64,000 nucleotides of DNA from Scenedesmus sp. PABB004. Its lineage: Eukaryota. The stretch's first letter is position 1, and each line of letters begins with the position of its first letter. The stretch spans positions 372,001-436,000 of the forward strand of contig CM026548.1 of NCBI GenBank assembly GCA_014905635.1. Reading direction: 5' to 3'. Made by a program: the position numbers and the translations under genes. Below are positions 12,172 to 64,000 of this stretch, in pieces. Under the pieces are notes generated by a model. That model was not told the origin of the DNA and made no database searches. It was given only the letters and a program-made list of their open reading frames with translations.

Positions 12172-12361
12172 GGCCGCGGAAATAGCTTGACGTCGAGTTG
12201 GTTGGCGCGCGGATTCGGCGGCGTGAGACTCGCGGTCGCTGTGCGGTCGCGTGCGGGGGTGTGGATGCGCGCGCCAGCGGCGGTGGGGCGGGGGGAGGCG
12301 GCGCACATTTTTGACCGCGCGGACCGCGCCCGCCCGGCTGCCGCCGCCCTGAACTTTGCGA

Positions 12362-55304: not shown

Positions 55305-57236
55305 TCACGGCACGGCCTTGCTGGGGTCCTTCACCGTGCCCTGCGCGGCGCGGCCGGGACCGGGCGCGGCCGTCAGCGCCGGCCGTGCCGCTGCGCCGCG
55401 CCGCGCGCGCGCAGCGCCGCGCCGTCCTGCCGCCCCGGCCAGCACCATACCGACCTGGAACAGCACGGCGCCGCTGGGCTCGTCGACGAGTACGAAGAGG
55501 AAGGGTCGGTTGAACACCAGCGGCGGCGTGGAGGGCTCGACGAACGACGTCGTCGTCATGACCACGCTCGTCACCGCGGCCGCCTCGGTGCCGCGCTCGT
55601 CGACGAGCACCACCGACTGCGCGCGGCGGCGGCGGCGGAGGCGGCGGCGGCGGCGGCGGTGGCGAGGAGGGTCGGGCCGCGTCGGCGCGGCGCGGCGGGC
55701 GCAGCGCCGGGCGCTGCCGGCCGGGCGCTGCCGGCCGGGCGCGGCCGGCGGGCGCGGCGCACCGACTGCACGACCGAGGTGATGAACAGCGCCTCTGGCG
55801 ACATGCGGCTGAAGTTGGCGGCGTCCGGGTCGAACGCCGCCGTCACGCCGAGCGCGCGCAGCGCCGCGCCGAGCGGGAGCTGCTCCGCGCGGACCTTGAA
55901 GCGCGGCAGCTGCAGCGTGAGCGACCCGAGCGCGGCCACGCTGCGCCAGGCCGAGCCGTTGAGCAGCGGGCCGAGGCCGATGCCCGCCGCGGCCGCGTCG
56001 GCGTTGAGGCCGTACTTTGCCTCGTCGGGCAGCACCGCGATCGCGACCACGCCGGTCCCGCGGTACGGCAGCTTGACGGCGCGGTACTGCCCCGCCGCCT
56101 CGGCGTACGCGACGTTGCCGCCGGCGTTGATGTCGCGCGGCTCAAAGCGGCGGTACATCATGTCCACAGCCACCGTCTGCCGCGCAGGGGGTGCAGGGCG
56201 GAGCGGGCGCGGAGCGGCGGCGCGCGGCGGCGGGGTGGCGAGTGAGCGCGAGCGGGGCGCCGCCCCCGCCGGGCAGGGCCGGGGCCGGGCCTCCCCGCGC
56301 GGCGGCGGCGTGCATGCGCGCGCGCGCACCGCGGCCTTGCCGCCCGGGCCCGCGACGGAGAACGGCCGCTTGCTCGTGGTGTCGGGGTCAAACGCGTAGA
56401 CCCAGGATGACTTGAAGTAGACTGCGCGGCGCCGTTGGGTGGTCGGGTGGGCGGCTTGCGCGAGCCGCGCGGCTTGCTCGAGCCGGCCGGCTGTGCCCGC
56501 GCGAGCCAGCCCGCGCGGCGGGGGCGCCGGGGCCCTGGCGGCGCGCCGGCCCTGCAGGGTTCATGGTTCCCTGCCCCGTCGGTCGCTCACTCACCGGCGT
56601 TGGTGACGATGAGGTTGAACTCGGTGCCGGGGGGCACCGCCTGCGTGATGCGGCCGCCCGTCTTGGCCGCCGCCCAGGCGTTGATCGGCGTCGTGTCGTT
56701 GACCGCCTTGACCGGCGTTTTGAAGGTCGCCCACATGCGCTCGCCAAACGCCTTGTTCACCGCGAGGCGGCGCGTCCAGACGCCGTTGGCGATGCCCAGC
56801 TCGGTGCCGTTTGCGGTTCCAGGGGATTGCAGCAGGCCCGCGACGAGCGCCGCCGCGCGCGCGTTGAGCGACGCCTCCGCCGCCGCCCAGCCGCCCGCCG
56901 TGAGGTTGGCGGGCGGCCCGCCGCCGCTCGGCGGCGCGAGCGCCGCCCACAGCTGCTGCTGCGTGCTGCTGAGCGGGCCTGCGGCGGCGCCGGCGGCGGC
57001 GGGCGCGGTTGGCGGCGGGCGGCGACCGCCAGCTGCCGCCGGCGGGTGACGCCGCCGAGCCGCCAAACTGACCGCCCCGTGACGCCGCTCTCACCGGCTC
57101 CGTTCAGCACGATGACCAGTGCCAACCACACCGAGAGCGGGCTGACGAACGCGCCGGCTGGCAGGCCTGCGAGGGCCCCCGACTTGAGCAGCTCCCGATA
57201 GAGAGCCGCGCCGAACGCCACGGCCGCGTCAGACAT
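55305..57236 (-). CDS. Serpin with inhibitory-type hinge and no signal peptide
   Basis: FVSPLSV, INAWAAAKTGGRI, TNA|VYFKSSW, LPRFKV, VDERGTEAAAVT and FNRPFLFVL motifs. Five introns. Minus-strand TGTAA at 55127-55131. Confidence 0.95.
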
Positions 57237-57513: not shown

Positions 57514-59383
57514 TCACGCGTCTGGAACCTCGCGCAGCGCCTCACACAGCTGCCTGTGCAGCTGCGCCGCGGGCACGTCGGGCGCCAGGCGCTGCAGGAG
57601 GGGCTCGAGCGTCGACGCGACGCGCTGCATGCTGCGCGCCAGCGCGGCACGCTCGCGCGCGCTCGCGGCGTCGCCGCGGCCGGCGGCGCCCTCGCCCCAA
57701 ACCAGGCGCTCGCCCAGCGCGGCCAGCGCACCGACCACGCCGCCGGCGGCGCGTCCGGCGTAGCCCGCCGCCGAGTCGGGCAGCTGGGCGCGCCAGAGGC
57801 AGCCCCCCACCGAGACGAGCTCCCCGCAGGCCGCCGTGGCGGCCGCGACGGCGGCGCTGTGCTGCCGCGCATCCGCCTCGTGCTCGCCGCGCGCCGCGCA
57901 GCGCTGCGGCTCGGCCCGCCACAGGCGCTGCAGCGCGCTGGCGCAGAGGAACCAGCAGGCGTCCAGGCAGTCGAGGCTGTCCGCGGCGCAGTCCTGCGTC
58001 GCCACCGCCACCGCCGCCACGCGCGCGAGCGGGCCGCGGCGCTCGCCCGCGCCGGGCCGTGCGGCGGCGTCCGGCTGCTCGCCGTCCGGCGGGTCCTCCT
58101 GCTGCAGCAGCGGGACGATGGCTGCCCGGAAGAGCACGAGGACCGGCAGCAGCAGCTCCAGCAGGAGCTGCTGCCCCCGCAGCGCGGACAGCAGCTCCAG
58201 CAGCAGCTCCGGCAGCGACGGAGCGCTCGCGGCCAGCAGCGCCGCGTCGTCTGGCTCCGTGCCGAGCTCCTGCAGCAGCCCGAGCAGCGCCTCGAGCACC
58301 GCCGCGTCGCGGTAGAGCTGCCGGTGGTCGGACGGCCCGAGCGCGCCACTCGGCGACGCTGCGCCGCCCGCGCCGTCGGACCCGTCCTCGTCATCGTCGT
58401 CGTCGTCCCAGCCGCCGCCGCCGGCGCCCCGCCGGCTGGGCGCGCCGCTCGTTGCCGGGCCCAGCACGCCCAGCAGCGATTCGGCGAGGCCCAGCGCCAG
58501 CAGCCGCTCCAGCAGCGGCCGCCGCTCCTGCTGCTCCTCCGGCGCCGGCTGCTGCTCCATCCGGGCAGCGCGCTCCGCGTGCAGCAGTGCCGCGACCGCC
58601 TCGAGGCTGCGCTGCAGCAGCAGCGGGTGCAGCGTGTTGTCGATGATGGCCAGCAGGCGCTCCAGCACAAAGTCGCCAAGCAGCACCGGCAGCCACGCCG
58701 TGCGGCCCTGCGGCAGCAGGCACGGCGGGGCAGCGGGGCGGCGGCAACGGCGGTCAGGCCAGCTGCCGCGGCGGCGGCGGCCAAGCCGCAGCGCGGCGGC
58801 GGGGCCCCGCACCTCGGGCGTGCCCAGCACCGCCGCGACGAGGCGGCACAGCTCGGACAGCGCCGGGGGGTCGTCCAGCGACGCCAGCAGCATCGGCACG
58901 GCGGACTGCTGCCTCTGCAGGGAGGGGCCGAGCAGCTGCGCGCGCGCAGGTTGGCCCGCAGCGTAAAAGTTGGCCAGCATGCCCAGCGCCATCTCGGTCA
59001 CGCGCGGGTCCGCCGCCGGGTGCTGGCCAGCCGCGACCGCGAGTGTCAAGCCGAGCGCGGTCGGGAGTTGCTCCGCTGCCAGGAACGCAGCCGCCTGGGG
59101 GGCACCGGCGGCGGCGGCGGTGCGGCGGCCGGCGCTCGGGCGGCGCCGGGCCCGCTGACGGCGTGGCGCTGCGCTGCGCGTCCGCTGTGCGCACCTCCGG
59201 GTCGGCGGTCAGGTCCCAGAGCAGCGTCCCAGCCTCCTCGACGCTGGGCAGGTCGTCGTTCTCGCTGCTGCGATCGAAAGCAGAGAGGAACGCGCGGACG
59301 AGGCGCCGCAGGCTTTCCGGCTCGAACGCGCCGCTGCTGTCGGCGCCGTCGAAGCTGCCCGCCTGTGCTGCCGGAGCCTCCAT
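57514..59383 (-). CDS. SAAL1-like ARM/HEAT-repeat protein
   Basis: LLWDLTADPE|AAAFL..PRVTEMALGMLANF resembles the SAAL1 N-terminal pattern; the rest is Leu-rich and helical. Two introns; 3' end less certain. Confidence 0.65.
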
Positions 59384-59552
59384 GTGCGGTTGAGGCGACC
59401 TGGGTATGGGCAGCACCGGGCGGCGCACAAGCGACAAGCGACGCGTCGAGCAGCGGTCGTCACTCGCAGAGACCTGCGCCGCCGCCGCCACGCGCCCGCC
59501 GCGCCGCCTGTGTCCCCAGTCCTCGGGAGGCGCACGCCCTGCGATTTTGTTG

Positions 59553-60149
59553 ATGGCCGGCCGCGCGGCGGCGGCTGCGCGGTGCGGCGCGGCGGGCGCG
59601 CTGGGAGCAGCGGCAGCGGCGGGCGCGCTGGGAGCAGCGGCAGCGGCGCTCGGCAAGGCCAGCGGGAGATGCAGGTCCGCGGGCTGCCTGGTGCCCCTGG
59701 TGGCCCCTGTGGGGCCCCGCCGCGCGACGGCCGCCGCGCGGCGCCGCCAGAGAGCCGCCCGCCGCCGCCGCCCGCGCAGCGCGTCGTTTGCGTCTGCGGC
59801 TGGCGCGCGCGCCTGCCAGGTTGCGTCGCTGGGCGCCATGCTGGGGGCCAACGCCTGCATGACGGCGCTGTTTGTGGGCGCGCTCGTGCGCCTGCCGTCG
59901 CTGCAGGCCACGGTGCTGGCCAACGCGGCCAACATGCTCGTGACGGGCCTCCTGGGGCGCTGGTTGTTCGGCGAGGCAATTACGATGCGCTGGGCGGCCG
60001 GCATCGCGCTGGTGATCGCTGGCCTGCTGCTCATCTCCCGCGCGGCGGCGCCGCAGGGCGGCCGCGCCAGCAACCCGGCGCCGCCGCCCGACCCGCAGCG
60101 GCGCCGCCGGGAGCAGCCGCCGCGTGGCGCGGCGGCCAAGGCGGAGTGA
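59553..60149 (+). CDS. TMEM42-like small DMT/EamA-type membrane protein
   Basis: GALGAAAAALGKA..NACMTALFVGAL..SLQATVLANAANMLVTGLLGRWLFGEAITMRWAAGIALVIAGLLLI. One 120-nt intron at 59700-59819. Confidence 0.85.
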   Translation: MAGRAAAAARCGAAGALGAAAAAGALGAAAAALGKASGRCRSAGCLVPLVAPVGPRRATAAARRRQRAARRRRPRSASFASAAGARACQVASLGAMLGANACMTALFVGALVRLPSLQATVLANAANMLVTGLLGRWLFGEAITMRWAAGIALVIAGLLLISRAAAPQGGRASNPAPPPDPQRRRREQPPRGAAAKAE

Positions 60150-60207
60150 GCTGGCCGAGCGGCGGCCGCGGCGCGGCGCCAGGCAGGGGCAGCAGCAGCG
60201 GCTGCAG

Positions 60208-61691
60208 CCATCCGTGTAGCAGCAGGCACCAGTCAAGCGCAGCAGCGGCAGGGGCAGCAGCATGGGCAGCATCAGGGGCAGCAGGCGGCGCGCCCGGCGG
60301 CGCGCCTGGCGTCGCGAGCGGCGGGCTCACCGTCGGCCCGCTCAGCGGCGACGACGCGGGCGGCGACGCGGGCTGCGAGTGGGTGCCGCCGGACCCGGAG
60401 CTCGGGCGCGTGAGCTACCGCCTGTTGGTCGCCTACGACGGCACCGCCTACTCGGGCTGGCAGCTCCAGCCGGGCCGCGCGCGGACGATCCAGGTGCGCC
60501 GAGGCGCGGCTGCTCGCGCGCCCCACGCGCCCGCGCCGCGCCGCGGCTGCGCGCTCACTCGCGCGCCGCGCATCGCCGCGCTGCCAGGGCGAGTTTGAGC
60601 GCGTGCTGGGCACGGCGCTACAGGAGGGCCGGCGCACGCTGTGCGTGTGCGCGGCGGGCCGCACCGACGCGGGCGTGCACGCGCGCGGGCAGGTGGTGCA
60701 GTTTTACAGCAACGCGGCGTCCCTCGACCCCGCGTGGCTGCCGGGCAAGCTCAACAGCATGCTGCCGCACGACGTGCGCGTGCTCTGGGCGGCGCGCACG
60801 GCGCCCGACTTCAGCGTCACCGTGTCGGCGCTGCGCAAGGTGCGGGCGGGCCGCTGCTGCGCCGTCGGAGCTCACCGCTCCTGAGAGCGCGGCGCGGCGC
60901 GGCGCGGGGCGGGGCGCGCGCCGGGCAGAGCCCTCAGCGCTGGCAGGGTTTTATGATGACGAGCACCCTCCAAAACCCCGCCGCGCCGCCGGCAGACGTA
61001 CCACTATGCCGTGGACGTCGGCGCCGCGCACGACCCGCTGCGCCACCGCTTTGCCACGCACGCGCGCCGCGCGCTCGACGTGCCCGCGATGCGCGCCGGC
61101 GCGGCGCTGCTGGTCGGCACGCACGACTTCACGCAGTTCAGCAACGCCGCGCCCGAGCGCCTGCGGCGCAACCCGGTGAAGCGGCTCGAGGCGCTGGACG
61201 TGGTCGACGACGGCCCCGCCGGCCTGCGCCTCGAGGCGCGCGCCGTGCGCCGCGGCGCCGCGCGGGGCGCCGTCCGGGCGGGGCCGCGCGCGCCCGCGCC
61301 GCGCGGGGCGCGCCCGCCCTCGGACCCCGCGTTGACGCGCCCGCCGCCGCAGGTCACGGGGAGCGGTTTCCTGTACAAGCAGGTCCGCCACATGGCGGGC
61401 GCGCTGCTCGCGCTCGGCGAGGGCCGGCTGGGCCTCGACGCCATCGCTGCGCGGCTCGCACTCGGCGCCGCGAGCCCGCCGGGCGCGGGCGGGGTGTGGC
61501 GGGGGTACAACGTCGCGCCCGCCAAGGGCCTGTGCCTCGTGCGCGTCGAGTACCCGCCCGCCGTGGACGACCCGGGCGCGCTGCTTTATCCGGAGCGGCC
61601 GCACGACGCGCACGGCCGCCTGCTGCACCGCGCGCGCGCCGGCGCGGGCGGCAGCGCGGGCGGCAGCACCGACGCCGACGACGAGGACTGA
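60208..61691 (+). CDS. truA: tRNA pseudouridine synthase A family protein; start unresolved
   Basis: VAYDGTAYSGWQLQ, AGRTDAGVHARGQV, GTHDFTQF, GSGFLYKQVRHMAG and APAKGLCL motifs. Three internal introns, one GC-AG. No in-frame ATG after the TMEM42-like stop. Confidence 0.92.
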
Positions 61692-61986: not shown

Positions 61987-64000
61987 ATGGAGAACTACCA
62001 GCAGCTCTGGGCGCTGGTCCAGGAGGTGGCGCCGGGCGCGGAGCTCGACCCGGCCGCGCTGCAGGTCGAGCTCGAGGCGTACCGGCCCAAGCTGCTCGCG
62101 CTCTTTCGCAACAAGGTGCGCCCCGGCGGCGCGCAGCAGCGGGAGGCGGCGCAGCGCCCGGCGGCGCGCACGGCGGCCGCGCGCGCGCGCGCCGGCGGCC
62201 GCTGCTGCCGCGCGGCAACCGCCGCAGCCGCCGCGCGCGCCGGGCGCCGCGCCGCGCGCCCCACCGCCGCGCGCTCCGCCGCCGCCGTCCCGGCGCAGGG
62301 CCCGGATGCGGGCCTGCGGGCGCAGGTGCAGCGCGGGCGCGTGGCGACGCCGTCGTTCGGGGAGGTGCCGCTCGATCGCGACCCTGATCAGCACTGGGTG
62401 CGCGCGCGCGCGGCGGCGCCGCGGGGGGCAGCTGCGCGCGGGGGCCGCTGCCGCAGGCCGGCGCCGGCTTCGCGAGCGCGAGCCCACGGCGCCGCCGGCT
62501 CGCACCCCCGCCGCCGCAGGTGGTGGAGCTGTCGGACAAGCTCCGCCTGGATGAGGTGACGTGCGTGGAGCTGCTGGCGTACGCGCAAGAGATGGTGCGG
62601 CGGCGGCGGCCGCCGCCGCCGCGGGCCGCGCCCGCCGGCGCGCGCTCGCGGCCCGCGCGCCGACCGCGCCGCGCACCCCCGCCGCGCAGTGGGGCCTGGG
62701 CGGGCTGGAGGCGGCGTTTGGGACGTACCTGCTGGAGCGTCTTGACGCCGCGCGCGCGCTCAGCCGGCTGCTGGCGCTGCAGCTCTTCCACCAGCTGGAG
62801 GTGGGGCAGGCGGGCGAGGCCGAAGGTGCGCCGGCGCCGTGCGCGCGGGCGGACGGCGCGGCGCTGCATGCGGGCGGCCGCCCCAACCGCGCCGGCGCGC
62901 GCCCCGGCGGCGCCGCAGGCGACGTGTCGGGCGGCGCCGGCGGCGGCGCGTCGGGCGACGGCATCAGCGGCAGCCTCGCGGCGTTGATGGAGTCGCAGCC
63001 GCTGCTGGCCGTGGTGTCGCGCTTCAACGAGGGCCTGCTGCGCGCCGAGGAGGGCGGCAAGAACACGCTGGTCGCCCGGCTCATTGAGGCCGTCCGGGTG
63101 CGGCGCCGGCGGCGGCGGCAGGCGTCACCGCGGCGGCAGCTGCGGCAGCGGCATCACCACCACCAGCGCCAGCAGCGGTGGCGGTGGCGGCCCACCACTC
63201 CGCCCGCCCGCCCGCCTGCCCTGCTGCTTGCAGGACCACACGCTCGACAGCCTGGGCCCCTCCTTTGCCGTCGCGCTGGACCAGTACGGCTGCCAGGCCA
63301 GCCGCACCTGGTACATCCAGCAGGCGCGTGCGGCGGGGGCCGCCGCGTGCGCCCTGCGGCCGGGCCGCTGCGGCGCCGCCCTGGGCCCCCTCCGGGCGCA
63401 GCACCTGCCCCGTCCCGCGCGCCGCCCACGCGCCGCGCCCGCGCGCCGCCGCTGCGGGGCTCGCAGGAGCGCGGCGAGCTGTGCCGCGCGCTGCTGTACG
63501 CTGTCGTGCTGAGCCCCACGCCGCTCACGCCGGCCACGCTGGCGGAGCTGCTGCAGCTGCTGGAGGCGCTGGCGGGCAAGGTCAAGGCGGCAGGTGCGCC
63601 GCCGGGCGCCGCACCTGCGCGCAGGGCGGGGCGGGGCGGGTCTTGCCGCCGCGCGCGGCCGATCACGAGCGGCGCCGCGGCGCTTCGCCCGTGCCGACTG
63701 CCTCGCGCCGCCCGCCGCGCGCAGGCGCGTCTGCGCCGCACGCGCTGCTGCAGCAGGCCACGTCGTGCCTTTTCGCGGTCATCACCGCCGTGAGCCTCGG
63801 CAACGCGGCGGGCGGCGCGCCGCGCGCGCCCGCCACGCTCGCGCAGCTGCTGCGCTCGCCGGACCTCGCGCCCCACCTCCAGCGCGGTGAGCTCGGGCGG
63901 CCGCGCCCGCGTGGCGGCCGCCGCCGCCGCCGCAGCTGCCGTGCCCGCCCGCCCGCCCGCGCTGCTCAGCGCGCCCGCCGCGCCCCGGCGCGCCCCGGCA
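61987..64000 (+). CDS. NUP205: Nucleoporin Nup205/Nup192-like, 5' part
   Basis: LLALFRNK|GPDAGLRAQVQRG..ELSDKLRLDEVTCVELL..YLLER pattern typical of the Nup205 N-terminus. Continues beyond the window. Confidence 0.75.

Follow-up and report, generated by a model that had tools for sequence, protein, structure and literature searches.

We propose that a TMEM42-like membrane protein and a TruA tRNA pseudouridine synthase of the green alga Scenedesmus sp. PABB004 are made from one mRNA, on which ribosomes would leak past a weak TMEM42 start codon to an ATG at 59669, inside the TMEM42 coding sequence, and so produce TruA with a long, probably organelle-targeting N-terminus. We give this reading, which we infer from sequence comparison, slightly better than an even chance. 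Gene order in related algae indicates that TMEM42 and TruA are a real, conserved gene pair, and the pair is probably a new, overlapping variant of the leaky-scanning bicistrons of green algae. The DNA analysed (the window) is a stretch of 64,000 nt, 79% GC, from an intron-rich genome of 40 Mb. As a reference we used a simple gene model trained on 200 kb of flanking DNA, which cannot represent overlapping genes; its 434 introns (median 120 nt) are predictions without an RNA check. The features of the locus, in window positions, are as follows.

59384..59552, no strand: intergenic spacer of 169 nt between the ATG (59383) of a divergent minus-strand gene and the TMEM42 ATG, placed from the sequence and the gene model; presumed to hold a shared promoter and the 5' UTR
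59553..59674, plus strand: TMEM42-like exon 1, with its ATG at 59553 in a weak context (T at -3)
59669..59671, plus strand: ATG in the -1 (TruA) frame, putative TruA start, with G at -3; the second ATG counted from the TMEM42 start
59675..59779, plus strand: GT-AG intron of 105 nt, predicted from splice scores and intron-like composition; both frames are kept across it
59780..60149, plus strand: TMEM42-like exon 2 through the TGA, giving a TMEM42 protein of 163 aa with the C-terminus K-A-E
60146..60151, plus strand: GTGAGC, a donor-like site (9th percentile) and in-frame GTG on top of the TMEM42 stop
60150..60412, plus strand: linker in which the TruA frame is open, with TruA-frame coding signal from about 60290
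60262..60264, plus strand: out-of-frame ATG in a strong context (A at -3, G at +4)
60413..60493, plus strand: beginning of the TruA catalytic core
60588..60839, plus strand: TruA exon with the GRTD motif (PF01416, E 6e-6), 5' intron 60494-60587
60996..61235, plus strand: TruA exon, 5' intron 60840-60995
61353..61691, plus strand: final TruA exon (PF01416, E 6e-10), preceded by a 117-nt GC-AG intron, 61236-61352

The deposited protein truA1 of this strain (KAF8066244.1, P0001 in our set) matches the window exons. It is a fused model, joining TMEM42 exon 2 to TruA across an intron at 60146-60345, and by our gene model it translates the GC-AG intron 61236-61352, giving 39 spurious residues. GC-AG ends occur in 120 of the 434 modelled introns (28%) of the flanking DNA and window, again by the model. 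Upstream of the pair lies the divergent gene (57514-59383, minus strand, about 540 codons), with its ATG 169 nt from that of TMEM42; downstream, a plus-strand gene with many introns (61987-64000) begins 295 nt past the TruA stop. The first exons of both lack a Pfam match; the former may resemble SAAL1 and the latter is presumably a large nucleoporin. A serpin-like gene (55305-57236, minus strand) matches the serpin fused behind TruA in a model from Scenedesmus sp. NREL 46B-D3 (P0002; tblastn E 3e-39), so the neighbourhood is common to both but rearranged. TMEM42 exon 1 also carries a 27-nt exact tandem duplication (59593-59646), which doubles a conserved A-G-x-x-G-A segment and keeps both frames.

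The upstream ORF is the only TMEM42 match in the genome. Its match to EamA (E 1e-5) does not reach the Pfam cut-off (TMEM42 belongs to the EamA/DMT clan); against 'Transmembrane 42-like', its Tetradesmus obliquus orthologue (P0125) has a score of 0.96. A word-index search with 474 candidates returned no stand-alone TMEM42; a full HMMER search for TMEM42 found 343, and stand-alone TMEM42 ORFs are present in relatives (P0125, P0133 and P0158). From 147 newly listed homologues we kept the 120 of 110-230 aa, dropping 27 by length. Lysine stands at -3 in 77 of these 120, against 3.4% lysine further upstream, and the K-A-E end of the window protein has it too, which indicates that the TMEM42 stop is the family's normal end; a genuine stop in turn argues against a splice fusion that would skip it. 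Lysine at -3 has a role in ER retrieval. The downstream gene is a TruA tRNA pseudouridine synthase: P0001 scores 88.6 bits against PF01416 (cut-off 23.3), and the sequence has the GRTD motif, which carries the catalytic Asp of TruA. There are three further PF01416 loci in the genome, and among the matches listed the nearest non-algal ones are short bacterial-type TruAs. The N-terminus of one relative's TruA (P0026) looks, from its sequence, like a plastid transit peptide.

The proposal starts from what is observed directly, namely the frames and ATGs of the window and the gene order and frame relation in its relatives. As a sequence-only reading of the window had claimed, the TruA frame is open back through the whole TMEM42 coding sequence, with no stop from 59159 to 60575 (position mod 3 = 2), and 59669 is the sole ATG in that frame ahead of the core, among 12 ATGs in 59000-61000. 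Its frame-preserving TMEM42 intron fared less evenly. The frame is kept, as it is by both candidate introns (105 and 120 nt), but the 120-nt placement (59700-59819, donor at the 2.5th percentile of the 434 modelled introns) gives way to the better fit of 59675-59779 (donor 28th, acceptor 42nd percentile). The ATG at 59669 is formed by AGA|TGC, which encodes Arg39-Cys40 of TMEM42; Cys40 is invariant in five of five aligned sequences, and AGA is the rarest arginine codon (0.3%), found at 0 of 211 arginines in predicted first exons. At the TMEM42 ATG +4 is G, and the T at -3 recurs in only three of 75 predicted starts.

Our model is that TMEM42 and TruA would lie on a single spliced mRNA, with one transcript and the predicted splice sites. 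Initiation at 59553 would yield the 163-aa TMEM42 membrane protein, which terminates at its own stop. Ribosomes leaking past the weak 59553 start would meet 59669 as the next ATG, in the -1 frame, which is open into TruA. From there they would translate 124 codons of TMEM42 in the shifted frame (the bases of exon 2 encode residues 3-125 of the proposed TruA) and continue past the stop, for a TruA of 516 aa that includes an extension of 213 residues. This extension is predicted to be or to carry an organellar targeting peptide, with import of the enzyme to follow. Its richness in arginine and glycine is automatic in the -1 frame of alanine and glycine codons and is no evidence of targeting. Given that the layout recurs in Chlamydomonas and Volvox models, one mRNA likely makes both proteins, with about 120 shared codons. 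A programmed -1 frameshift was discarded as a shared mechanism: the TMEM42 of the window lacks a canonical slippery heptamer, and a volvocine-like metagenome contig (L019) has one in its tail. A scan with bacterial promoter patterns, which do not apply to this alga, found nothing.

Gene models in related algae bear out the TMEM42-TruA adjacency that the sequence-only reading had asked to see checked. TMEM42 stands ahead of TruA in the Sphaeropleales, the Volvocales and one trebouxiophyte, so the order is kept into the Trebouxiophyceae. The contigs of P0158 and P0024 have the same length (9673), as do those of P0139 and P0020 (2265), a hint that each pair may lie on a common contig. A TruA protein search gave 527 matches, of which 120 were listed and the best 35 read. 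TMEM42 sequence precedes TruA in 15 of these best 35, fused in the TMEM42 frame in 11 and in another frame in four. The fused models include two from Scenedesmus and others from Raphidocelis, Tetradesmus, Hariotina, Pleodorina, Edaphochlamys, C. incerta, Gonium and C. schloesseri; [Myrmecia] bisecta supplies a twelfth. Their junctions are inconsistent. Three (P0001, P0003 and P0013) share K-A-D, which implies a donor at the Glu-stop, and the other eight join elsewhere, with two of the fused models (P0005 and P0006) lacking the first TruA strand, as predictor artefacts would. The four remaining models start TruA inside TMEM42: Cre13.g591501 of C. reinhardtii (P0019) and three Volvox models (P0025, P0027 and P0028; one from Volvox reticuliferus and two from V. 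africanus). We asked which residues a shifted TMEM42 frame could encode, with shuffled sequences as the control. The N-terminal approximately 100 residues of these four proteins correspond to the -1 frame of TMEM42, with scores of 194-197 against means of 20-22 for shuffled sequences (maximum 35) and 12-21 for the other shift; 86-90 of 94-101 positions are compatible. No such alternative-frame signal was detected in the other 13 of the 17 TruA N-termini tested. Between the start of the overlap and the core, three of five volvocine sequences (P0019, P0130 and L019) have no in-frame Met, and two (P0127 and P0028) have a later one. Models that start TruA in TMEM42 can exist only where the frame is open, so the annotated examples are a biased sample. 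Leaky scanning into an overlapping frame, one of several routes offered by the sequence-only reading, gains real support from these four models and one metagenome contig.

That contig came from a motif scan of metagenomes in which two of 35 loci proved to be this TruA (L019 and L026), the other 33 having no tblastn match. L019 (VFQN01001395.1) is volvocine-like, with TMEM42 in three exons. Its -1 ATG, at GGA|TGC, lies 65 nt past the TMEM42 ATG and opens a frame that is free of stops for 282 codons, across three predicted introns, beyond the TMEM42 stop and into TruA; the product aligns with the C. reinhardtii protein P0019 from residue 1, and its next in-frame Met is residue 225, within the core. 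Under the contig's own codon use, the joint chance of the ATG and the open frame is about 0.04. The contig has another in-frame ATG 43 nt ahead of the TMEM42 start codon, and the order of the two ORFs there hinges on the cap site. L026 (VFQS010096350.1) is closer to the window's species, with 79% identity in the first TruA exon, and has in-frame ATGs of its own just upstream of TruA, which means that the overlap is not universal and that the TruA start differs among species. One of these ATGs lies in a TAATG stop-start and has a Ser/Arg-rich leader, and TMEM42 is not on the contig, where the upstream DNA is too short to show it. In the first 60 bases of its reverse strand, TGTAA (the poly(A) signal of chlorophytes) overlaps with a TAA and with the ATG of TruA, all within 7 nt; in the window's genome, no 5-mers are more enriched past predicted stops than TGTAA and GTAAC.

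The ATG at 59669 is not at the volvocine site. It falls 16 codons further on in the alignment, and at the volvocine position the window has Gly-Ala in place of Gly-Cys, which implies a separate origin or a shifted start and leaves homology of the start sites unsupported. The volvocine ATG requires a Cys following the conserved Gly; this Cys is present in nine of 29 rows in the window's clade (one of them probably misaligned) and in one of 87 outside it, by a quick tree; since the Cys-bearing rows share kinship, this excess is only a lead. With these points in mind, we suggest tentatively, at somewhat short of an even chance, that TMEM42-TruA is an ancient chlorophyte bicistron in which the TruA start moved independently, in volvocines and Sphaeropleales, to a second AUG inside TMEM42, so that 100-180 codons of the -1 frame, interrupted by several introns, would encode an organellar targeting peptide; Cre13.g591501 would then hide a TMEM42 gene.

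Within this genome, the open frame and the donor-like stop carry little information. Stops occur in the -1 frame at 0.006 per codon. Of 20,000 synonymous re-codings, 69% leave this frame open between codon 39 and the TMEM42 stop, and nine of 55 predicted genes have it open across their last 124 codons and 266 nt beyond the stop. Less common is an ATG in the -1 frame together with the open frame, which arises in 11% of re-codings; the AGA codon and the T at -3 noted above are likewise unusual. GTGAG is found at 26 of 80 predicted stops, and at 22 of the 80 the site scores at least as high as the donor here. Openness and donor are thus ordinary in this genome, and we discarded both as evidence. 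Scoring with the gene model shows no TruA-frame coding signal in the region of overlap. The weight of the case comes from the relatives.

Four other explanations were weighed. TruA could start at the out-of-frame ATG 60262 if the frame were restored by a tiny GC-AG intron or if the assembly had an indel near 60265-60290. The locus would then be a tandem pair or bicistron of the ordinary kind, its genes 112 nt apart; we consider this unlikely, if the least so of the four. The strong context of that ATG favours it, as does a TruA-frame coding signal that begins just past it, at about 60290, with a run of G in between. The gene model, to which overlaps are not available, picked a 58-nt intron here (60288-60345). 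An in-frame ATG of L026 has a similar context, and the DNA upstream of it weakly resembles the linker (a score equalled by 2% of 2000 control windows), though the likeness sits in CAG-rich, low-complexity DNA. Introns of 61 nt or less make up only 17 of the 434 modelled, however, the sites of such an intron are poor (donor 2nd-17th, acceptor 4th percentile) and 60290-60345 itself scores as TruA-frame coding. The product would lack a transit-like N-terminus, and the volvocine models and L019 would be left unexplained. Upstream of 60262 there are six ATGs, as there are upstream of 60146, compared with only the ORF1 ATG upstream of 59669; a start beyond the TMEM42 stop is therefore in conflict with the depletion of AUGs before ORF2 reported for algal bicistrons in the part of that work available to us (PMC11892635). 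The same six ATGs weigh on a start at GTG 60146, which overlaps the TMEM42 stop in the TruA frame and had gone unmentioned in the sequence-only reading. Termination-reinitiation or near-cognate initiation there would give TruA a 67-residue leader with no Asp or Glu and 19% Ser, for which the TAATG and Ser/Arg-rich leader of L026 offer a parallel. Overlapping stop and start codons are described in A. protothecoides bicistrons, but the published cases, as far as the source was available, are start codons and not near-cognate ones (PMC11892635). L019 has no such overlapping codon at its stop, and a G precedes TGA or TAG at 49 of 80 predicted stops. We rate this start as less probable than the ATG 60262.

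Less probable again is alternative splicing, in which the donor at 60146 would skip the stop to give a membrane-tethered TMEM42-TruA fusion and intron retention would give TMEM42 alone. The signals named for it earlier are there: the TGA (60147-60149) lies within a donor-like GA|GTGAGC with its GT at 60146, ATG 60262 is out of the TruA frame, and acceptors resuming at 60208, 60220, 60223 or 60226 would each give an in-frame fusion. So would 13 of the 25 AGs in 60150-60399, including that used by the deposited model (60346), which removes 60146-60345, and the 11 fusions among the best 35 models, three with the same junction, point the same way. On inspection the idea weakens. The donor, poor by percentile and matched or bettered at more than a quarter of predicted stops, is a by-product of the Glu-stop; the four acceptors fall in the bottom 1-7%, and no in-frame acceptor for an intron of at least 60 nt scores above the bottom 7%. 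In intron-likeness the linker ranks below 99% of the modelled introns, the reading frame of the C. reinhardtii model continues through the TMEM42 stop region, and the discordant junctions and lost TruA strands described above are what predictor artefacts would give. The TMEM42 C-terminus is a family feature, and the TMEM42 proteins of T. obliquus and Flechtneria, ending in K-A-A, also count against it. Least probable of the four is separate transcription, from a promoter in or after TMEM42, with TruA starting at a near-cognate codon or a Met near the core and lacking a targeting peptide. In its favour are in-frame GTGs at 60383 and 60410 and the Met that several relatives carry at the first core strand, which some models (P0009, P0010 and P0024) take as their start, but the window has Leu there. 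The 112-nt gap to ATG 60262 is shorter than 31 of 32 other same-strand gaps, the sole shorter one being a model artefact. (That 53-nt gap, 12309-12361, had been considered as a second bicistron and was rejected as a wrong start call in the gene model.) TGTAA is absent from the plus strand of the linker, a weak point against this reading, since just 11 of the 59 modelled 3' regions carry one.

We return to our preferred reading, initiation at 59669 by leaky scanning, to ask what is on record. In CC-4532 v6.1, Cre13.g591501 keeps a 1674-nt CDS with two AUGs in a 209-nt 5' UTR, taking the meaning of the column from the head row of a sister sheet (PMC11892635), and the v5.5 product is given the target 'M' in the supplement to an earlier study (PMC7896298). 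A term search of the available supplements of published algal bicistron lists did not find the TMEM42-TruA pair (PMC7896298; PMC11892635), although loci given by identifier only, for example those of C. zofingiensis, could hide it. In the available part of the later study, Cre13.g591501 is among the monocistronic genes only, and no pseudouridine synthase or TMEM42 term appears (PMC11892635). A full-text literature search, with most subscription papers outside its scope, returned no paper on the pair or on g591501.

If our reading is correct, algal bicistrons include long dual-coding overlaps as well as consecutive ORFs, and screens that rely on two separately annotated genes would miss such overlaps. 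It would also offer a simple way for a downstream ORF to escape upstream AUGs and perhaps to gain a targeting peptide. The 'TMEM42-TruA fusion' proteins in at least 11 algal annotations are probable artefacts, and the question of overlap is open to testing now in C. reinhardtii. We know of no functional link between TMEM42 and TruA.

The closest known systems are the leaky-scanning bicistrons of green algae, which the available parts of two studies describe as having a short ORF1 encoding a small protein, a long ORF2, a weak ORF1 context and colinearity across chlorophytes (Gallaher 2021, PMC7896298; Duenas 2025, PMC11892635). The ORFs here are 492 nt (spliced) and about 1550 nt, and the published medians are 357 and 1113 nt (PMC11892635). 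Algal bicistron ORFs are consecutive, with a median gap of 183 nt in C. reinhardtii and 40 nt in A. protothecoides, and the most overlap that we noticed in these sources is a stop on a start (PMC7896298; PMC11892635). By contrast, ORF2 here would begin in the first quarter of ORF1, with 124 codons common to both and across an intron. We class the locus as a variant of the algal bicistron because the assembled sequence has no in-frame ATG between the TMEM42 stop and the TruA core. Human MOCS2 (MOCS2A/MOCS2B) is likewise one mRNA with two overlapping frames and a second start reached by leaky scanning, according to the part of the source available; the overlap there is 77 nt, compared with about 370 nt here, and MOCS2A and MOCS2B are subunits of one enzyme (PMC9607355). 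Human MOCS1 (MOCS1A/MOCS1AB), in which splicing chooses between ORF1 alone and a fusion, is the pattern for the splicing alternative (same source, PMC9607355); unlike MOCS1, the locus described here has weak splice signals and discordant fused models. Lastly, the dual-coding genes altFUS and moss YAN/AltYAN also have a second frame nested in a coding sequence, and whereas theirs encodes a separate small protein, the second frame proposed here would lengthen the N-terminus of a conserved enzyme encoded downstream.
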